Below, one piece after another: positions 1,220 through 59,284 of a stretch of DNA of 64,000 nucleotides (position 1 is its first letter; each line of letters begins with the position of its first letter). Source of the DNA: an uncultured Patescibacteria group bacterium. GTDB taxonomy: Bacteria > Patescibacteriota > Microgenomatia > UBA10105 > UBA927. Both the position numbers and the translations under genes were made by a program. The DNA lies in NCBI GenBank assembly GCA_937921305.1, contig CAKZSU010000002.1, positions 1,711 through 65,710 on the forward strand. The letters are read 5' to 3'. The notes under the pieces were generated by a model, which ran no database searches, had not been told where the DNA came from, and was given only the letters and a program-made list of their open reading frames with translations.

Positions 1220-2041
1220 ATGGATACACGTCCATCACTCCTTATCATCGGCTACACAAATATCGACATCAATATCACCCCAACAAAAACCACAACGCTT
1301 CCCGGAGGCGCCGGATACTTCGCTGCGCTCGCGGCGTCGCTCATTACCCAACCGATTGGATTTGTAACCCGCATAGGAACCGACTTTGATCCGTCACTTC
1401 TCCTTTCTCGCATTCTGCCCGATGGTATTCACATCATCCCGGACAAACCGACCGCGCGATCCATACAACGATACCACTCTGACACTGATCTCACCCAACG
1501 AGACATATCTCTTGAATGGGGGGTCGCCCCAGATCTGTGTCCAGAAGACATTCCGCGTGAGTGGACAGATAGTATTCAATATATTCATATCGGAACCATG
1601 CATCCAGATCAACAAGCTCGTTTTCTTTCGTGGATTCGATCCCACATGCCAAAAACAACAATAAGCATAGACACAGATCACTATTTATTCTCATTTCCCG
1701 GTTATCTTGAAAAGATACAAGAAAACTTTCGCTCCGCCGACATTATCTTCCTCAATCGTAATGAATACGCCGAACTTCGAAATATCACAGATACTCATCC
1801 GTTCTCAATTGTAAAGCAAGATAAAGACGGAGCAAACATTCTTCATTATGGGAAAGAAACCTATCGCGTCCAGGCGGAGACCGTCGAACCCGTCGATGTC
1901 ACCGGAGCGGGAGATGTTCTCGCTGGCGTCTTCCTCGCTTCGCTCTCCAAAGGAATACCTGAAGCAGACGCATTGAAAATAGCAGTTTCTTTTGCAACCC
2001 AATCAATAACGCAAGAGGGAATTTTACACCTATTTATTTAA
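1220..2041 (+). CDS. PfkB-family carbohydrate/nucleoside kinase (ribokinase-like)
   Basis: N-terminal GG-containing sugar-binding segment (LPGGAGYFAALAASL). C-terminal DVTGAGD anion-hole motif typical of the ribokinase/PfkB superfamily. Confidence 0.65.
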   Translation: MDTRPSLLIIGYTNIDINITPTKTTTLPGGAGYFAALAASLITQPIGFVTRIGTDFDPSLLLSRILPDGIHIIPDKPTARSIQRYHSDTDLTQRDISLEWGVAPDLCPEDIPREWTDSIQYIHIGTMHPDQQARFLSWIRSHMPKTTISIDTDHYLFSFPGYLEKIQENFRSADIIFLNRNEYAELRNITDTHPFSIVKQDKDGANILHYGKETYRVQAETVEPVDVTGAGDVLAGVFLASLSKGIPEADALKIAVSFATQSITQEGILHLFI

Positions 2042-2855
2042 CAGAAAAAATGCTCTCTCGAATCTTCACAGCCGCCTTTCTCGCTTCGCTGATATAATCA
2101 TTGTTGCCAAGTCCGGCAAAAATAATACCCCGAGAACTGTTCACAAGCAGTCGATTGCCATCGGTTCCAAAAAGCCCGCGAAGAGACGCAACGGTTCCTC
2201 CCTGCGGACCAATACCCGCGACAAGCATTGGCATTTCGTCGCCAACAATCTCGCGAATCCGGCGAAGTTGCTCTGGATAAGTCGCCCCGCCTTCCACCCA
2301 CACATTTCCATTACTATTCCATGCGTTCGCAACTCGTTCTGCGACAACTTCGTAAACTTTCCGTCCGTCGCGAAGTTCAAGATCTTGAAATTCTACCGCG
2401 GACGGATTGCTGTCATGAACATAGACGCACACGCCATGCCGAGGATCGTCAAGATAATCGCGCGCTGTATCAAACCCAAACCATGGCGTTACCATGACAC
2501 AATCAAACAATAACCAATCGAATAACTCTTGTTTGACCATGCGAACAGATTCGCCCATTTCTGATCGCTTACCATCGGCAAGAAGAGGAATATCTGGATA
2601 GTTTTCCTTGATATACGCGCTCGTTTTTCGCAACGCTTCCAATCCTTCTAGCCCAAATCCAGCATAAAACGAAAGATTCATCTTGTACGCCGCCGCAAGA
2701 TCGTGCGTCGCGTCAACAATCTGAGCATTAAACGAAAACACTGTATCAACAATCGACGACGACGCGTTTGGAATGCGATCATATCGACTATCCAACCCAA
2801 CACACAGATGTCCTTTTTGAACAATGGATAAAAGAAGGCGATCTCGAAATGTCAT
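2034..2855 (-). CDS. pyrF: orotidine-5'-phosphate decarboxylase, type 2
   Basis: Length 273 aa. LCVGLD..., IVDATHD and K-containing motifs resemble long-form OMP decarboxylases. Overlaps neighbouring genes by a few nt (operon-like). Confidence 0.6.
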   Translation of the reverse strand: MTFRDRLLLSIVQKGHLCVGLDSRYDRIPNASSSIVDTVFSFNAQIVDATHDLAAAYKMNLSFYAGFGLEGLEALRKTSAYIKENYPDIPLLADGKRSEMGESVRMVKQELFDWLLFDCVMVTPWFGFDTARDYLDDPRHGVCVYVHDSNPSAVEFQDLELRDGRKVYEVVAERVANAWNSNGNVWVEGGATYPEQLRRIREIVGDEMPMLVAGIGPQGGTVASLRGLFGTDGNRLLVNSSRGIIFAGLGNNDYISEARKAAVKIRESIFSVK

Positions 2856-4126
2856 GATTTCGGCGTAAAATCATCATATCGCCCAGACGCGATCTTCGCA
2901 AGAATGTCCGCGCGAGCTTGTTTCGCTAGCTTATCATAATCTGCTCGAAGATGCATCGATTCAACGACTTCAACACCAAATACTTCAAACGCTTGTTTTT
3001 TTCCTCTGTTATTCGATGCCAACGAAACACGATTTATTCGCAGATCTCGATGAAGCACATCAATTAATCCATACGTTCGCACATCGCTGGGCATATCAAG
3101 CAAATCGCGAGCTTTATAAATATCCCCCGATTCACTGATGGTAATATGCGTTTGCCAAAACTTATTCACCGCGCCAAGCCCCATACCTTCCTCGTCAGCG
3201 TAGATAAGAATGCCAGATCCATGTTCCCTGATCATCTGTAGTGTCTTCTCTCGCTGCAATCTGCAGTCACACGCGTTGCCGCCATGTTCTGCGGTTTTAC
3301 AACTGGAATGATAGCGAGCGATTGGCGGCTTGTTTGGATCATGAATATCTCCATAAATCAAGACATAATGTCGTTTGATTTTTTGTCCATAGGATCGACG
3401 TTCAGAGAGCGGTTGTTCTTCATACACAATCATTCGAGCAAAATCTCCATCGATAAACCGCACCGGCATATCGTGGGACTTCACAACTATTCGTCCATCC
3501 GGCGTGTAAAACACTTGATGAAGCGATCGCTCGGTTGTTAATCGACGCTGAAGATCGCATCCATATTCTGGATTTGTTTGAAGATATTGAACATCTCGAA
3601 TTCCCAAAGCCTCAAAGACACCTCGCGCCACAGGAAGACGATAAGGCGTTGTTGTTTCTGGATCGAACGAAAGCAACAACGAAGCGTCCGCGTCTTGATG
3701 AAAAACGGAAGACACAACATGATCCCTTCGTTGAGAACACCCACAATCTAAATTAAAATACATACCGGGACATTCTTGTATGGTCCCAATCAACATCTCT
3801 CGTTGTCGCTCTCGTTCTGATCCATACCAAAACGCATAGTGATGCAAATGATTATCTTTTCCTCTACTTGCGAACAGTGTCATTTTTTGTGGATGATCTT
3901 CGCCTTCGGTAGATTGAAGGCCAGTTGCCAAAATCTGCACGACGCCGAATTGTTCACCGATTCTCTCTATGCCCTGCTGATTCACTATTTCTCCGCTTCG
4001 TGGCAAGAATGCCATCCCGTCATCATCAACAGCGAAATCTACCGCAGATCGATACATGCCTGATTTTTCGTATGGATTCATTCGTTCTTTCATAAAAAAA
4101 CAGAGCCACTCATGGCTCTGCCTCAC
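2852..4126 (-). CDS. GTP cyclohydrolase II (RibA)-like protein with ~200 aa N-terminal extension
   Basis: C-terminal half aligns with RibA. Matching segments are YVLIYGDI, the ARYHSSC...CDCRLQ zinc-cysteine triad, EHGSGILIY and EEGMGLGAVNK. The N-terminal ~200 aa have no counterpart in canonical RibA. Confidence 0.6.
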   Translation of the reverse strand: MRQSHEWLCFFMKERMNPYEKSGMYRSAVDFAVDDDGMAFLPRSGEIVNQQGIERIGEQFGVVQILATGLQSTEGEDHPQKMTLFASRGKDNHLHHYAFWYGSERERQREMLIGTIQECPGMYFNLDCGCSQRRDHVVSSVFHQDADASLLLSFDPETTTPYRLPVARGVFEALGIRDVQYLQTNPEYGCDLQRRLTTERSLHQVFYTPDGRIVVKSHDMPVRFIDGDFARMIVYEEQPLSERRSYGQKIKRHYVLIYGDIHDPNKPPIARYHSSCKTAEHGGNACDCRLQREKTLQMIREHGSGILIYADEEGMGLGAVNKFWQTHITISESGDIYKARDLLDMPSDVRTYGLIDVLHRDLRINRVSLASNNRGKKQAFEVFGVEVVESMHLRADYDKLAKQARADILAKIASGRYDDFTPKS

Positions 4127-4204
4127 TGTATAGTACTTATTTTATAAGACTTCGGGACACACTGCGTTGTTTGCATCATCAAAATCATATACTATAGGAT
4201 AGTA

Positions 4205-4241
4205 TAGTGTACAAAAGCATCTTTTTCAATACCGTACACTA
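4205..4241. promoter_or_regulatory. perfect 8-bp inverted repeat TAGTGTAC-N21-GTACACTA in divergent intergenic region
   Basis: Seen directly in sequence between the minus-strand ribA-like gene (start 4126) and the plus-strand membrane protein gene (4320). A GC hairpin (ctgcaagg cttga ccttgcag) follows at ~4271-4291. Confidence 0.3.
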
Positions 4242-31564: not shown

Positions 31565-33781
31565 ATGGCAAATCCCAAAGAAGCTCCAAAAAGAAATCCT
31601 ATCACAACAGAAGATCAAAAAATAATCCCGAATAACTGGAAAAATAACTGGAAAAGCCTTGTTGCGTCAGCACTGTTTGCTATATCTTCTGCTGTAGTTC
31701 CTGACAGACAAGCATCCCCTTCTTCTGTTGACGACAGAGCATTAGAAATATTAAACGGACAACGACAACGAAGAATATCGCTTGTTGTGGATCAACGTGG
31801 TGATATATTTTCTCGAATTTCCCTCCCTGAATCTTCACGATCGGAGGAGCAGCAGAGAAACCTTGGAGCATTTGTGGAGCTTCCATCGATAGGAACTTTT
31901 ACAAAAGAAGAACAAAAACGCATACAAGCGCTGGTGTCAAATCGATTTTCTAATGCAACAACCGGAAGATATCTTATTCCTACTGCGGATGAGTCAGAAC
32001 TCTCCTCTCTTCTTTCGGATGAATCACCATTTGCTCAATATATTCATAAGATAATGCAGATAAGAAGATCAATAGAAGGAGAAGTGCAACTACTACTACT
32101 CATCCAGAAAGAAAATAGCCAGAAAGAAAATAGCGTTAAACAAGTAAGTATTATCTTCCAACCGATGGGTTCGCTTTCTCTTGGAGAGAGGATGGTAAAT
32201 CCGGAAAATCCAACATGGATTTTTCCAGGGAAAGATGGTGGATTACGAGTGATTGATGCGGGAAATTTACCTCAAGGAGCATCTCTTGATGCTATTACAG
32301 ACAGGCGTGATCTTCTAACTCTTCAAAGGAGCGCAAGAGCGCAAGGCTATGAAATTGATCTTTCGTCATATAACGGGGGATTTGTTCCTGTAATAAGAGA
32401 TGAGAAAGGACGGGTGATTCGCGTATTCGGCGAGAAAGGACCGGTCACATTTGAGCAACCATATATAAGACATACTGGAGGAGATCCAGTGAATATTCGA
32501 GATAATCCTTCCACATCTGGGAATCGTGTTGGATCATTCACATCAACAGGAGAGCCACTACGCGTGATAACTCCTGAAGAATTTCAAGAATACAGAGAAG
32601 CGATTCCTGATCAGACACGACTTTCGATAGAAAATAATAGAGTAACTTATAATGATGGTCGATATACATGGATTGCTGTATCATACGAAGGAAAAATACG
32701 ATGGGTTGCCCAGTTTCCTCAAATCCAACCATTTTCTCAACTCGAAGGAGTTTCGATAAGACAAGAAGCAATAAAAGAGTCATTCTCAAATAATCCAAAT
32801 ATCCTTGCTCGTCAACTTCGCCTCCCTGAAGGACAGTATAATTTTTATACAAATGAAGATTATGGACCGATAGAAATGTTACGAGATCAAAATGGAAAAA
32901 TTTGGGCAGTAAAAAAAGAAGGACAAGCAAACTGGCAAACAGCCGAAATGGTCGCAAGAGAATTAGGATTAGATACGCATGGAACCATAGAAATACCCGG
33001 ACTAGTAATTCAAAGACGAGAAGAAAAATTATACTATTATTTTTATAGTGATCTCTTGAATCTCTTTCTTAAAGAAGAAAGACCAAGCGGCAATAGACGA
33101 GGCATTGTTGCCATGTTTGACCATGAAACAGGAGATTGGTTAAATTTTCAATATGCTCAATATCGGATGATTGGTGTCCAAAACCTTGGAATCGTTAATA
33201 ATCCCCCATTGGGAATCGGATATAGTCGAGCTGCAGAACGATTTTTCTCTTTATATGGCGTAGGTGGAGGAGTAAGAAAAGTAGATCTTTGGATTTCCCC
33301 AGAATTGCATATTACAAAAATATTGAGGGTATATTGGTTAGAAAATCCCGGTCCAAGAACACCATGGACGCTTGAAAATCTTGCAATGAGAACCACAGTC
33401 ATTGTCCTTGACGGAACATTTAATGGTCAACAAATACAAGTATATGACAGTGAAATTTCTGAGGTTGAAAAATATTTACAAACAGTAGGTGTCCTTATCC
33501 GCAGTAGAATTAATATTGATCCAAGGTCGGAAAAAAATTTTCCAAAAACAACTCTATCCATATGGGATTTCATGGGGAGAGGAGAAAGATTGAATCTCCC
33601 ATGGGAAGAATATCAACGAAGACTAAACGATTTTTATCGTCAACATGGAGTGATGTTTGTCCAACTTGAAAGAATAGATACCAGAGAAAATCCTTATTAT
33701 CCAGGTCATTTTCGATTTCAAGTAGTGCCGTTCCCACCTGCGTTTCCTCCACATCCAATATATCCTGAAGATCCTAAATAA
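31565..33781 (+). CDS. large hypothetical exported protein (738 aa)
   Basis: One N-terminal hydrophobic segment (LVASALFAISSAVVP). No recognisable catalytic motifs. Proline-rich C-terminal tail. Confidence 0.4.
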   Translation: MANPKEAPKRNPITTEDQKIIPNNWKNNWKSLVASALFAISSAVVPDRQASPSSVDDRALEILNGQRQRRISLVVDQRGDIFSRISLPESSRSEEQQRNLGAFVELPSIGTFTKEEQKRIQALVSNRFSNATTGRYLIPTADESELSSLLSDESPFAQYIHKIMQIRRSIEGEVQLLLLIQKENSQKENSVKQVSIIFQPMGSLSLGERMVNPENPTWIFPGKDGGLRVIDAGNLPQGASLDAITDRRDLLTLQRSARAQGYEIDLSSYNGGFVPVIRDEKGRVIRVFGEKGPVTFEQPYIRHTGGDPVNIRDNPSTSGNRVGSFTSTGEPLRVITPEEFQEYREAIPDQTRLSIENNRVTYNDGRYTWIAVSYEGKIRWVAQFPQIQPFSQLEGVSIRQEAIKESFSNNPNILARQLRLPEGQYNFYTNEDYGPIEMLRDQNGKIWAVKKEGQANWQTAEMVARELGLDTHGTIEIPGLVIQRREEKLYYYFYSDLLNLFLKEERPSGNRRGIVAMFDHETGDWLNFQYAQYRMIGVQNLGIVNNPPLGIGYSRAAERFFSLYGVGGGVRKVDLWISPELHITKILRVYWLENPGPRTPWTLENLAMRTTVIVLDGTFNGQQIQVYDSEISEVEKYLQTVGVLIRSRINIDPRSEKNFPKTTLSIWDFMGRGERLNLPWEEYQRRLNDFYRQHGVMFVQLERIDTRENPYYPGHFRFQVVPFPPAFPPHPIYPEDPK

Positions 33782-34186
33782 AAATATACAAATTTTCTTC
33801 TTATTGTCTTTGTAAGATACAAAATATCTCTACTTATAGAGTTCTACCATTTTGCTAAACTTTTTGATCTGATACATAATCATGACATATAATAAAGTTC
33901 TCGAATCGTTTAGCTTTTTCATTTACATAAAAAACAGCGTTTGTATATTACATTTCCTTTATTAAGATTTTATCTTACCGCAAAGATTGCATCATACCGA
34001 TTATTTTTTTATCATATTAGTTGTAAAAAGCAGTAAACAACGATGTTAAAGTAACATGTAATAAATACCATCACTCCATCCTTTTTTTAAATGAATTTAT
34101 TGAGAAGATATATTCTAATAAAAAGATGCAAAAAGAAATATATTGTATTAAAAATAATAATCGTTTCATAAAATAGATAATAACTT

Positions 34187-34960
34187 ATGCATGTAAAAAC
34201 ATTTTTTGATTCCATCTGGAAACATAAAATATCTATTATTCTTTTTGCACTATTTTTTTCTCTGTTTGTTTCTATAGTAATCTACAGCATTAGGGCAAAT
34301 CCTAGTATAAAAAATACTATAAAAAAATATACTACTCCTAAAAAAACATATCGAGAACAAGAATTACTTCAAAAAATGAAAACGTTCGCGTTTCGAAACG
34401 GAGAACCTGCTCTTGCAAGAGGTATTACCGGTGGAGCAAAAGATTACGGTGGCAACACAATAAAAGGCGTACTTGCGGATATTACAACCAATCCAATACC
34501 TATCAAAACAAAAGATGGAAAAGAAATTGCAAAATCAATCATGACGTTTACTATTTTCTATATCAATGATTATAACGAGCTTGAAAAAATATATTTATCT
34601 GCAGCCATTCAATTTCCTGATGGATCATATTATCTGATAAGCGATAATCCAATTCGATTACCAAATGATACCGTAAATGATGAATATTATTACGATAAAA
34701 TTGGCACACCAGTATTCGCGCTCTTTCGAACAAATACAACATTAGGGCTAGAAACACTTAAACAACAAGGAAAATCTAAAGAAGAGCTTGATGCTGCAAA
34801 ACGAATTTTTTCATTTATTCAAACATATGAATCAAGCTGGAAGGAAGAACTAGACACGCTTGTTCTAGGAGGAAGAAAAGGAGCGTTGGAATTTCTCTTT
34901 CCTATCGCCTATAGCGATGATAGCTTTCGTCTTGAATATCAAGTATTTACTATTCCTTGA
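34187..34960 (+). CDS. hypothetical membrane-anchored protein (257 aa)
   Basis: N-terminal TM (ISIILFALFFSLFVSIVIYSI). Remainder hydrophilic. Confidence 0.35.
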   Translation: MHVKTFFDSIWKHKISIILFALFFSLFVSIVIYSIRANPSIKNTIKKYTTPKKTYREQELLQKMKTFAFRNGEPALARGITGGAKDYGGNTIKGVLADITTNPIPIKTKDGKEIAKSIMTFTIFYINDYNELEKIYLSAAIQFPDGSYYLISDNPIRLPNDTVNDEYYYDKIGTPVFALFRTNTTLGLETLKQQGKSKEELDAAKRIFSFIQTYESSWKEELDTLVLGGRKGALEFLFPIAYSDDSFRLEYQVFTIP

Positions 34961-36672
34961 CGAATATGAACTACAATGTTTATTCAAAATACTATCATTT
35001 TTTTATTGTCTGCATTTTTATCATTTTATTCTCTAGCAATGGCAAACATATTGTGATGGCTCAAGGGTATTCTACATCATGGTGTCCAAGTGGATGGTGC
35101 ACTGGGGAAAATAGTGGATTATGTTATAAAATGTGTGGAGTAGTTTTTGGAGTATGTCAGCCGACAGAAGGAGAATGGAGATCCTGGACATGTGGTGGAC
35201 ATCAATGTCTCTCTGGTCCTATTTTAGGATGCGGCAGCAATGTATCGTGCTCTAGTAGTGGAGTTACTATAGATAAGTGCGGTAACTGTCCTGGATCGCA
35301 ATATCGAGAATGCGGAACTTATGGAGCTGGATGTTATAATAATGTTAATCAATATGGATGCGGAACAGGATATAGAGGGGTAGCAAATCTAGGAGCATGT
35401 GGGAAAATTATAGAGGGTAGTTGCGCCGAACTTTCTTATCAGCCTATGGAGTGCTGTAGTCCAAACCCAAATCCAAATCCAAGTCCGAATCCAAGTCCAA
35501 GTCCGAATCCAACTTCTCCACCTCCGCCTGGAACATTTCAAGCAAGAGCGAGAAGAATTCCGTACGCAAGCATTGGAAACTGTAGCAATCCATCGGCAAC
35601 CCCCCTCTCTTCTTCCCTTCGCTTTGCCCCAGGAGTTCCTTCTCAAAACTCCGATGGAACATCCTATGCCTCGTGGTCTGTTACTCCTGGGACCTACACC
35701 ATCCTTCCAACGATTACGGAAGAAAATGGTTCTTCGTATGTATTACAAACCGTTTGTGTGTCGCGAGATGGAGGTTCGTTTTTTCCTTCTACGGTTGCTC
35801 AGACTGTAGGAAGCGGACAGACGATCGTGTTCGATCTTCTCTATACCTATGCAACATCGTGGATGCTGGTCGATGGAGGGGATGTAATTGCCTGTCAAGA
35901 TCTTTCTTCTGTTGTTCCTCCTTCTGCTGTTCCCGCGCCATATTTTATACTTGCGTCTGATGGAGGGTATCCTGGGGTAGCGTTGTATGGGACATGGTAT
36001 AGTTTTGATGAGTCACGATTGTATCGAACAGGGAGAGAATCTATTTCTCAGACCGGATGGATTGCGCAGTCTTCAAATCATCCATTGTGCAATACACAGA
36101 AGGTGAATTTTTACAAGGAGTTTGCGCACGCTGTTGATGTGAAAGCGATGACGCCGAAGAGAAATCTTCTTGGAGAACGAACAAAGGATGATTTTCCCGA
36201 CGCAGCGACCTATGTGATTGGAGATCTCACGCTTGGAGGATCTGACGACACGGCATGGGCGCTGTCTCAGAATGAGAAAAAAACGATTGTTGTGGATGGT
36301 AATGTAACCATTCGACGGAATATTACCTATCCTAACGGCGGGTTCTTTGGACTGATTGTGAATGGTGATATCACCATTAATTCCACTGTAGGATCGAATC
36401 CTTCAACAAGAACGCCAAGTCTTCGCGGATTCTATGCCACGAGTCCACAAGGAAGGTTAAACACGGGGAGAAGCACTATTACTGGAAAAGAGAAACTAGT
36501 CATTCTTGGGACCGTTGCGGTGGGGGGGGTAAATCTTCAGCGGAACTTGGATACGATTGGGATGAATCACACAACACCTGGAGAAGAATTCATCTATGAT
36601 ACTCACCTTATCATGAATCTCCCAGAGGCATTCCTTGAAACCAACATCGTTTGGCAAGAAGTCCCCCCGTGA
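34957..36672 (+). CDS. secreted cysteine-rich protein with PNPS-repeat linker and large C-terminal domain
   Basis: Signal/TM at the N-terminus. About 150 aa with more than 25 Cys. Low-complexity PNPNPNPSPNPSPSPNP linker. A ~380 aa C-terminal domain rich in G/T/S/N. TTG start in the track; the ATG at 34966 is more likely. Confidence 0.4.
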   Translation: MTNMNYNVYSKYYHFFIVCIFIILFSSNGKHIVMAQGYSTSWCPSGWCTGENSGLCYKMCGVVFGVCQPTEGEWRSWTCGGHQCLSGPILGCGSNVSCSSSGVTIDKCGNCPGSQYRECGTYGAGCYNNVNQYGCGTGYRGVANLGACGKIIEGSCAELSYQPMECCSPNPNPNPSPNPSPSPNPTSPPPPGTFQARARRIPYASIGNCSNPSATPLSSSLRFAPGVPSQNSDGTSYASWSVTPGTYTILPTITEENGSSYVLQTVCVSRDGGSFFPSTVAQTVGSGQTIVFDLLYTYATSWMLVDGGDVIACQDLSSVVPPSAVPAPYFILASDGGYPGVALYGTWYSFDESRLYRTGRESISQTGWIAQSSNHPLCNTQKVNFYKEFAHAVDVKAMTPKRNLLGERTKDDFPDAATYVIGDLTLGGSDDTAWALSQNEKKTIVVDGNVTIRRNITYPNGGFFGLIVNGDITINSTVGSNPSTRTPSLRGFYATSPQGRLNTGRSTITGKEKLVILGTVAVGGVNLQRNLDTIGMNHTTPGEEFIYDTHLIMNLPEAFLETNIVWQEVPP

Positions 36673-55540: not shown

Positions 55541-55659
55541 CCTCGGCGATGACCTATCTTCCAATAGCTCGCGAGAGCTACGTATTGTTGGCGCTGAACC
55601 GTTTTACTTCTGAGTTCGGAATGGGATCAGGTAGTTCCAGTTCGCTCAAATCACCGAGA
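55541..55659 (-). rRNA. rrf: 5S ribosomal RNA
   Basis: Reverse complement contains the conserved GATCCCATTCCGAACTCAGAAG loop C/helix III region. Ends pair (TCTCGGTG.../...CGCCGAGG). A hairpin plus T-tract follows on the minus strand. Confidence 0.75.
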
Positions 55660-55771
55660 CAATTCTGTTTTTTTGAACCGCATTGAATATGAGTCAATTG
55701 CCTAAAAAGGGGCAATGTGCATCCGCATTTTTCTGCATACGGTAATCGCCGTCACGGAAAAGGACCCTTTA

Positions 55772-58980
<3,209 letters not shown>

Positions 58981-59171
58981 AGAACAAAAGGCTTTTGTTC
59001 CGGCGACTCTTTTTTATGGCATAAAAAAAGAGGTGAATGTCATTACCCCTTTTCATGCAACTACTCATTCAATGTTTCAATGTTTTTCCCTATTCACTTG
59101 TTAAAGTGCAACACTGTACTCACGAAGCAATACCTACGATGACATTGCTTCATCATCGTCTGTATCGCATC

Positions 59172-59244
59172 GTAATGGAGTGGACCTGGGCGGAGTCGAA
59201 CCGCCTACCTCTTCATTGCAAATGAAGCGTTCAACCAGGTAAAC
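59172..59244 (-). tRNA. tRNA-Ala (anticodon UGC), upstream of 23S
   Basis: Acceptor stem GGGCCTG/CAGGTCC with G3:U70. Anticodon stem CTTCA/TGAAG with loop TTTGCAA. T-arm GGCGG-TTCGACT-CCGCC. No encoded CCA. Confidence 0.75.
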
Positions 59245-59284
59245 TTCAGGCCCTTCGACTTCGCTCAGGATACTGTCCCAACAC

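Follow-up and report, generated by a model that had tools for sequence, protein, structure and literature searches.

The window analysed here is a 64,000-nt (64-kb) stretch of contig CAKZSU010000002.1 (GenBank assembly GCA_937921305.1, positions 1,711 to 65,710) from an uncultured Patescibacteria bacterium. Near its left end, on the minus strand, lies a gene for a two-domain protein related to GTP cyclohydrolase II (GCH II; RibA in Escherichia coli), which is followed by a gene for an orotidine 5′-monophosphate (OMP) decarboxylase-like protein (OMPDC-like). Both halves of the first protein are predicted to adopt the GCH II fold, its catalytic half has exchanged two residues of the RibA active site, the family is rare, and the two genes stay together in nearly all lineages where it is found. 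The original prediction, made from the DNA letters, had described the gene as a RibA-like domain with an unexplained N-terminal extension of about 200 residues.

Two copies of the GCH II fold in one chain

The minus-strand open reading frame (ORF) 2852-4126 of the ORF list encodes 424 aa when it is read from a GTG at 4126. The 11 additional codons gained from this GTG traverse a leader hairpin. The Met encoded by the ATG at 4093 is the first residue in each of the 17 family members and also in the database copy of the protein (P0001, 413 aa). Because of this common start, ATG 4093 rather than GTG 4126 is the likely start codon, which gives a protein of 413 aa. The N-terminal extension is thus real, with a length nearer 190 aa after the start correction. 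The features of the gene are as follows.

2852..4093, minus strand: two-domain GCH II-like coding sequence, 413 aa plus stop, likely start at ATG 4093
3524..4093, minus strand: N-terminal domain, aa 1-190, predicted degenerate duplicate of the GCH II fold (hhalign, Foldseek, second-family profile)
3737..3772, minus strand: N-domain Cys motif CPGMYFNLDCGC (C108, C117, C119), in register with the catalytic zinc motif
2855..3523, minus strand: C-terminal catalytic GCH II-like domain, aa 191-413 (PF00925, RibA alignment, Foldseek)
3263..3301, minus strand: catalytic zinc motif CKTAEHGGNACDC (C265, C275, C277), invariant in the family and aligned to C54/C65/C67 of RibA
3149..3193, minus strand: EEGMGLGAVNKFWQT segment, in which Arg94 and Tyr105 of RibA are replaced (RibA alignments and family alignment)
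3077..3079, minus strand: Arg339, equivalent of RibA Arg128, invariant in the family (DVRTY aligned to DERDF of RibA)

The alignments place the catalytic half in the GCH II superfamily. In the 424-aa reading, residues 217-391 match Pfam GTP_cyclohydro2 (PF00925) with 86.7 bits (E 1.7e-24, cutoff 23.3), and the two motifs named in the original prediction, HSSCKTAEHGGNACDC with its three Cys and EEGMGLGAVNK, are both found. Against E. coli RibA (PDB entry 2bz0) the single sequence aligns at E 9e-17; when the family profile is the query, the value is E 5e-24. The AlphaFold model of the full-length protein (pLDDT 71.9) superposes on 2bz0 with a Foldseek E of 5e-9 and a TM of 0.82 on the target; PDB matches of this full-length model are limited to the C-terminal half. 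Compared with the CX2GX7CXC motif of RibA, the zinc triad is spaced one residue shorter (C-x9-C-x-C) and has Ala for Gly. The SNNxxK motif is invariant across the 17 members, and SNNxxKK as well as an AK..G tail are also shared with RibA. The C-terminal tail was considered as an UrcA-specific feature and then dropped, since the tail of E. coli RibA (LDTKAEKMGH) is similar.

Tyr105 is needed in RibA for the second hydrolytic step, the release of formate. In RibA it is found four residues past Lys101 in a continuous helix. The equivalent position in the family is an invariant Thr315, which comes after an invariant Gln314; if a gap is allowed the aligned residue is the variable next one, and no conserved Tyr is found. 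In a Streptomyces GCH II paralogue the loss of this Tyr reportedly halts the reaction after ring opening, at the formamidopyrimidine, and a single hydrolytic step would be expected here if the behaviour of that paralogue applies. In addition, RibA Arg94 (QEGR) is replaced family-wide by an invariant Met304 (EEGM). The residues that are kept, namely the zinc Cys triad and the equivalent of Arg128, have described roles in GCH II, Arg128 being involved in the alpha-phosphate contact, as nucleotidyl acceptor and in pyrophosphate release (PMC10366380). This split, with an invariant Arg128 equivalent and a Thr or variable residue for Tyr105, is the one foreseen when a test of the catalytic residues was suggested in the original prediction.

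The RibA and RibBA models of NCBIfam all score far under their cutoffs (79-92 vs 148-206; TIGR00505 79 vs 205.85, NF001591 91.5 vs 148), and the RibBA models match the C-terminal half alone. The UrcA-type model PRK07198 gives 31.5 bits vs a cutoff of 403. The UTP cyclohydrolase UrcA (7ej3/7eev) matches the family profile with E 3e-11 over query residues 246-407. Because of the Tyr/Arg pattern and these equivalog scores under cutoff, the protein is neither a RibA nor an UrcA orthologue.

The N-terminal half has no Pfam or NCBIfam match of any kind. RibB (the synthase that makes 3,4-dihydroxy-2-butanone 4-phosphate), which would make up the N terminus of an ordinary RibBA, is ruled out by these searches, as foreseen; without RibB the protein is therefore not an ordinary bifunctional RibBA. 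When the N half was compared with the C half by hhalign, a single collinear alignment over 94 columns was obtained (N 49-145 to C 16-117, score 27.3, E 0.0023), in which HHYAF is paired with HYVLIYG, CPG..CGC with CKT..CDC, and ASLLLSFDPE with SGILIYADEE. Column-shuffled controls score 13.6 ± 2.3 with a maximum of 20.2 (0/150 reach the real score), and the reversed profile scores 13.1. A second GCH II-like family, independent of this one, also has a catalytic domain that the N-domain profile matches (E 1e-3), and the predicted order of secondary-structure elements is identical in both halves.

The structure predicted for the N domain alone agrees with this comparison. In a Foldseek search of the PDB with its AF2 model (pLDDT 79, from the 17-sequence alignment), GCH II structures fill ranks 1-4, with 4i14 (E 9e-5) and 2bz0 (E 6e-4) both at probability 1.00. 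Rank 5 is the unrelated 3pyg with probability 0.38, and ranks 6-8 are the UTP cyclohydrolase entries 7eev/7ej3 (E 0.012-0.02) and the GCH II 4rl4 (E 0.012). Profile comparison and modelling thus identify the N domain as a degenerate internal duplicate of the GCH II fold, and the proposal of a new domain partnership is not supported. The Cys pattern QE-C-PG-x6-C-G-C mirrors the catalytic zinc motif. H85, C108, C119 and C179 are invariant and C117 nearly invariant among the 17 sequences, and no other catalytic motifs are retained in this domain. The richness in His and Cys, which had been pointed out in the original prediction, is then a relic zinc-site motif, and C108, C117 and C119 probably form a second metal site with H85 and C179. 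RibA is a homodimer (PMC10366380). The degenerate copy probably stands in for the second subunit, or carries a structural metal or zinc.

A PF12471-type N terminus, as found in UrcA, was also considered. No PF12471 match and no sequence or profile signal was obtained, and hhalign aligned the catalytic domain alone, the UrcA N termini in this comparison being partial. Association of the N domain with other partners was rejected as well. A search with the N-region profile against 1.84 billion representative proteins returned 15 matches, of which 12 are proteins of 413-426 aa with the same two-part architecture; the others comprise two fragments of less than 80 aa, a truncated copy of the N terminus of the window protein itself (P0012, 148 aa) and a spurious match to a repeat protein (P0021). 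A word-indexed search of 5.8 billion proteins gave 10 clusters, three loci were found among 185,579 species (one genome each), and two loci in the metagenomes of JGI. Where source labels are present they name Patescibacteria. The tandem GCH II-fold family is thus very rare, and it appears to be restricted to Patescibacteria. To be noted, three loci (L009, L010 and L011; loci retrieved for comparison carry L numbers) have GenBank titles of the type 'uncultured Pseudomonadales/Gammaproteobacteria bacterium' from bin-chicken co-assemblies. These taxon labels are probably placeholders or wrong, because the genes present, like the closest homologues that carry a label, are those of Patescibacteria.

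A Pfam search of 44 of the window's ORFs of at least 150 aa found no RibB, RibD, RibH or RibE domain, as had been stated for the neighbourhood of the gene, and no domain of the Pyr pathway besides the pyrF-like gene. Moreover, no rib, folate or F420 genes are present in the 64 kb or in any related locus. The description of the gene as a GCH II paralogue away from a riboflavin context was therefore correct, and it is not a riboflavin-synthesis enzyme.

The protein was also compared with several known systems. With RibA of E. coli (PDB 2BZ0/2BZ1) it shares the fold of the C half, the zinc Cys triad, the Arg128 equivalent, SNNxxKK and the AK..G tail, and the N half also has the RibA fold in the model; RibA is a single-domain homodimer, whereas the window protein has two tandem copies of the fold per chain, with Tyr105 changed to Thr, Arg94 to Met, the shortened C-x9-C-x-C, scores under cutoff and no rib context. 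UrcA/Urc1p (PDB 7EEV, 7EJ3) resembles it in length (about 415-425 aa), in the C-terminal position of the catalytic domain (hhalign probability 97.7 between the catalytic domains), in the additional N-terminal domain of about 200 aa, and in the pyrimidine nucleotide context, with a uracil phosphoribosyltransferase (UPRT) neighbour in one lineage (L001/L002). However, the N domain of UrcA is PF12471, the N-domain model matches 7eev only weakly (E 0.012), and the partner here is an OMPDC-like gene rather than URC4/URC8. RibBA, represented by RibA2 of Mycobacterium tuberculosis (PDB 4I14), is of similar length and also has its GCH II domain at the C terminus; the N half of the window protein has the GCH II fold in place of a PF00926 or RibB-model match. 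The protein consequently falls outside RibA by Tyr105, score cutoffs and context, outside RibBA by the missing RibB domain, and outside UrcA by the missing PF12471 match, the cutoff and the Tyr/Arg pattern.

A conserved OMP decarboxylase-like partner

The two genes that follow in the window were named as neighbours in the original prediction and are confirmed, with the following coordinates.

2034..2855, minus strand: OMPDC-like (pyrF-like) partner gene, 273 aa (TIGR02127, 188.3 bits vs cutoff 110.6), its ATG overlapping the upstream stop codon (ATGA)
2556..2576, minus strand: variant active-site motif DGKRSEM (canonical DxKR[GS]DI), the second catalytic Asp being Glu
1220..2041, plus strand: PfkB-family kinase (Pfam PfkB, 81.9 bits), convergent with the OMPDC-like gene, the 3′ ends overlapping by 8 bp

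The overlap of the GCH II-like stop codon with the pyrF-like ATG in the window is one form of an association that recurs elsewhere. The pyrF-like gene comes directly after the GCH II-like gene in L003/L004/L010, L005, L006/L007/L009/L013, L008, L012 and L015, directly before it in L014 and L016, and 2.6 kb away in L011. L001/L002 alone have no pyrF-like gene nearby; UPRT and then UMP kinase (pyrH; UMP, uridine monophosphate) are found instead. The pyrF-like neighbour is therefore a conserved partner in nearly all lineages and not incidental. We found no description of this pairing or of a tandem GCH II protein in the literature, subscription-only papers lying outside the scope of the search.

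Enzymes of nucleotide metabolism recur among the further neighbours. The pyrH gene is close by in five lineages. L005 has uridine kinase (udk), CTP synthase (pyrG), dCTP deaminase (dcd) and pyrH. Directly downstream or around, pyrH, pyrG, udk and dcd are found in L005, L015, L017 and L018. The L003 group carries a purine nucleoside phosphorylase (PNP) and an unclassified purine-type phosphoribosyltransferase (PRTase) within a salvage island of Maf, TK/Tmk, Gmk, PNP and PRTase. No pyrE was found beside the pair at about 14 loci. The nearby PRTases were considered as pyrE and ruled out, their best scores being with purine or unclassified types.

The partner has the full-length fold of type-2 OMPDC (PDB 3R89, 3QW3) and passes the TIGR02127 model. 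Its Lys-Asp-Lys core is retained, and so are the Ser and Gln that bind uracil and the Arg that binds phosphate, that is, ligands of the phosphate, ribose and uracil type. The D-x-K-x-x-D signature of OMPDC nevertheless fails: all partners read [DE]xKR[ST]E[MI], and in the partners of L011/L014 the first catalytic Asp is also Glu. Compared with type-2 OMPDC, the window partner has KRSEM for KR[GS]DI, HDSNP for [KR]TSN and an extra Glu in GNVxVE, and the gene it pairs with is not pyrE but a GCH II-like one. In the partners generally, HD[ST]NP stands beside the uracil-binding Ser and the extra Glu is invariant. Of the 120 best homologues (P0142-P0261, 56-90% identical, labelled Patescibacteria, Woesebacteria or Pacebacteria), at least 115 have Glu at the variant position, the motif search being ambiguous for the other five. 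By its sequences, the Glu-variant OMPDC subfamily is widespread in Patescibacteria. Members of this DxKRSEM subfamily, with HDSNP and the extra Glu, are annotated as ordinary pyrF.

Three of the variant-OMPDC loci, which are on long contigs (L017, L018, L019), were sampled. All three carry a longer GCH II-like protein of 481-503 aa, annotated as hypothetical (for example PIR59276.1 and MEP7166371.1). In L018 and L019 its gene stands directly upstream of the variant OMPDC; in L017 it is the first gene of the cluster to which the OMPDC belongs. The longer proteins resemble the window protein in the Glu-variant partner, in the PfkB orthologue, in the retained zinc triad and Arg128 equivalent, and in the absence of Tyr105. 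They differ in their N-terminal region, which is unrelated and about 300 aa long, in keeping the Arg of EGR, and in the catalytic domain, which is about 28% identical. The window decarboxylase is 60-62% identical to those of L017-L019 vs 43-45% to those of L003/L006, so that the GCH II-like architecture has been exchanged within the decarboxylase lineage.

L017 and L018 have in common orthologues of a HAD phosphatase (45% identity), an SDR (67%), UMP kinase and PfkB, and udk is additionally present in L017. The larger conserved cluster spans 4765-13431 in L017 and 6549-12720 in L018, with the long GCH II-like gene, HAD, SDR, PfkB kinase(s) and UMP kinase; in L017 it also includes an alpha/beta hydrolase, a His-phosphatase and two unannotated proteins of 288 aa and 247 aa, the latter P-loop-like. 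The window PfkB is 53-57% identical to the PfkB proteins whose genes adjoin the OMPDC-like gene in L017 and L018, and the convergent arrangement of PfkB and OMPDC-like gene, with an orthologous kinase, recurs in L017. The best NCBIfam matches of the kinase (ribose-1-phosphate kinase, ribokinase) are far under cutoff.

A shared leader and other features of the window

Two features are found upstream of the GCH II-like start codon.

4094..4124, minus strand: leader with a Shine-Dalgarno-like GAGG, a perfect hairpin CAGAGCCA-TGAG-TGGCTCTG and a U7 run abutting the AUG (fold z-score -2.76)
4184..4229, minus strand: two overlapping sigma-70-like promoter matches, which are consensus matches only and no commoner than in shuffles

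A 16-mer, GCTCTGTTTTTTTATG, made up of the 3′ arm of the hairpin, the U7 run and the start codon, is identical in the window, in L005 (9988-10003) and in L017 (4752-4767). It is found nowhere else in the loci retrieved, and its first 12 bases match exactly once in the window. The proteins behind this 16-mer differ, that of L017 having the other architecture. Since the 16-mer is identical across the three loci, it suggests that one GCH II-like gene took the place of the other while the leader in front of it stayed. The leader is not the terminator of the upstream gene, because this gene is divergent in both the window and L017; it is a candidate attenuator or translation-control element. The hairpin has no match in Rfam, the PyrR site included, and is not flagged by a simple terminator scan. 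At L003, L006, L008, L012, L011, L018 and L014 a hairpin with a U-run also lies 0-20 nt before the start of the GCH II-like gene, but with a different stem (AACCAACC...GGTTGGTT in the L003/L006/L008 group). These hairpins could be terminators of co-directional upstream genes or leaders of the same kind.

Elsewhere in the window, 55541-59253 on the minus strand contains tRNA-Ala(TGC), 23S rRNA and 5S rRNA, in this order. The rRNA operon appears to be unlinked, because no 16S gene is found in the remaining 4.7 kb upstream. The 23S match covers 3209 nt vs 2925 nt of the model, and insertions of about 280 nt are therefore implied. The stretch 31565-36672 has a GC content of 0.37 vs about 0.44 and the only positive GC skew of the window; it holds three large ORFs (738, 257 and 571 aa) without Pfam match and may be an acquired island. 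Over nearly all of the 64 kb, GC skew stays between -0.06 and -0.20, strongly and evenly negative whatever the gene orientation.

A putative ring-opening hydrolase and its alternatives

UrcA (7eev/7ej3), a GCH II homologue, takes part in uracil catabolism with a two-step hydrolysis of UTP. The yeast URC pathway, in which UPRT is required, yields ribosylurea and 3-hydroxypropionate. The reading we prefer, tentatively and with confidence that stays below even, is that the window protein is a uridine-nucleotide ring-opening hydrolase with chemistry of the UrcA/Urc1p type, working as a unit with its Glu-variant OMPDC-like partner. UrcA/Urc1p is, to our knowledge, the sole characterised GCH II homologue outside riboflavin synthesis. 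From the residue pattern and the gene context we infer what the substrate is, that the ring is opened in a single step, and which reaction the partner carries out, as follows. A zinc-activated water would open the uracil ring of a uridine nucleotide, either UTP or, given the lost Arg94, UMP. Since the Tyr for the second hydrolysis is gone, the ring-opened carboxylate (a ureidoacrylate ribotide) would stay attached to ribose-5-phosphate. The OMPDC-like partner would take this product and remove its carboxyl group; with no pyrE beside about 14 loci, the substrate of the decarboxylase would come from the neighbouring enzyme. This carboxylate would be one bond further from the glycosidic nitrogen than that of OMP, which would fit the change from Asp to Glu, that is, longer acidic side chains in the partner, and its new His-Asp beside the Ser that reads O4/N3. 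The two proteins would be translationally coupled and act together in pyrimidine nucleotide metabolism, with uridine kinase, UPRT and UMP kinase supplying the pathway. At the sister loci the HAD phosphatase, SDR and PfkB kinase could process ribosylurea or ribose phosphate and a small aldehyde.

Several points weigh against this proposal. The chief objection is that pyrG, udk, dcd and pyrH in L005 are neighbours of a supply type, which is odd beside an enzyme that destroys uridine, the more so in bacteria reported to be without nucleotide synthesis. In sequence the catalytic domain is nearer to RibA, with 88 bits, than to UrcA, with 46 bits, and UrcA keeps the Tyr and the Arg94 equivalent (KEGR, KFLVY), so the analogy is incomplete. 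The partner, which scores above the TIGR02127 cutoff (188.3 vs 110.6) with its Lys-Asp-Lys core kept, may be a true OMP decarboxylase. Furthermore, we know of no precedent for an OMPDC scaffold decarboxylating a ring-opened ribotide, and HAD and SDR co-occur only at loci with the other GCH II-like architecture and are absent from the window.

If the partner is indeed a true OMP decarboxylase, it would give UMP, from which UMP kinase and nucleoside-diphosphate kinase would make UTP, and the GCH II-like protein would act alone, like UrcA, as a cyclohydrolase of UTP or another pyrimidine nucleoside triphosphate (NTP); the two proteins would then be co-regulated steps and not consecutive partners. 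The score above cutoff (188 vs 110.6) and the retained Lys, Asp, Lys, Ser, Gln and Arg ligands fit such a role, as do the UPRT of L001/L002, another source of UMP in the place of the decarboxylase with pyrH next to it, and the presence of pyrH near the pair in five lineages. This alternative is nevertheless unlikely. Neither pyrE nor another source of OMP is found beside the approximately 14 loci, where the PRTases are purine-type or unclassified, the second catalytic Asp is Glu in all members (with the first Asp also Glu in L011/L014), and the tight pairing outlasts the swap of the GCH II-like architecture.

The best sequence and structure matches are with RibA, and the Cys triad, the Arg128 equivalent and SNNxxKK are kept, which would suit an enzyme acting on GTP. 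Such a GCH II- or GCH III-like enzyme would stop at the formamidopyrimidine nucleotide without the Tyr, as the Streptomyces paralogue reportedly does when Tyr105 is lost, and would feed a pterin-, flavin- or deazaflavin-like or a signalling route. However, the ArfB-like role on GTP suggested in the original prediction gets no support from the context, which is one of pyrimidine nucleotide metabolism: the conserved neighbours are all pyrimidine enzymes, and rib, folate and F420 genes are missing from the 64 kb and the related loci. Moreover, the scores are far under the RibA equivalog cutoffs, Arg94 is lost, and a formamidopyrimidine product would offer no carboxylate to the partner. We judge this explanation improbable.

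An anabolic role would reverse the direction of the pathway. Ring closure (as a cyclo-ligase) or hydrolytic maturation by the GCH II-like protein would make OMP or an analogue from a scavenged precursor bound to ribose phosphate, and the decarboxylase would pull the reaction to UMP, a non-canonical supply without PyrB-E. UMP would be the product of the paired decarboxylase, pyrH, pyrG, udk and dcd surround the genes in L005, L015, L017 and L018, no pyrE is nearby, and Patescibacteria are reported to lack synthesis of nucleic-acid precursors. No member of the GCH II family is known to work in the closing direction, however, and the retained alpha-phosphate Arg suits NTP hydrolysis. No candidate precursor or precursor-making enzyme was found, and the SDR, HAD and hydrolase neighbours would be left without a role, which makes this possibility quite improbable.

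It is very improbable that the protein is a house-cleaning zinc NTP pyrophosphohydrolase or deaminase for non-canonical or cytidine nucleotides, placed in a salvage operon with no chemical tie to the decarboxylase: the loss of Tyr105, the salvage island of L003 (Maf, TK/Tmk, Gmk, PNP, PRTase) and a side activity by which GCH II is said to convert GTP to GMP via an Arg-nucleotidyl intermediate would agree with it, while it would not explain why the variant decarboxylase is adjacent in both gene orders and with either GCH II-like architecture, and the zinc triad is fully conserved.

Taken more broadly, the GCH II-derived zinc hydrolase and the Glu-variant OMPDC may together be a dedicated module of two enzymes that serves, across Patescibacteria, a so far undescribed pathway of pyrimidine nucleotides, with two interchangeable hydrolase architectures of which the tandem one is rare. 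Within it, the OMPDC barrel would have been repurposed for a ring-opened uridine ribotide, or the pair would make UMP non-canonically. We advance this module with low confidence. If it is true, the 'ribA' and 'pyrF' calls in these genomes are misannotations, and metabolic reconstructions of Patescibacteria that use automated calls of this kind would contain 'partial riboflavin' and 'partial de novo pyrimidine' pathways that have no meaning. For protein evolution the protein would be a case in which a cyclohydrolase changed from a homodimer to a tandem pseudo-dimer, and an OMPDC lineage with the otherwise invariant second Asp as Glu is a natural experiment in enzymology. The pair, with its two GCH II-like architectures, common leader, common PfkB, and HAD and SDR in sister loci, suggests a widespread uncharacterised pyrimidine nucleotide route, and the setting of the proposed route would be host-dependent bacteria that must scavenge pyrimidine nucleotides.

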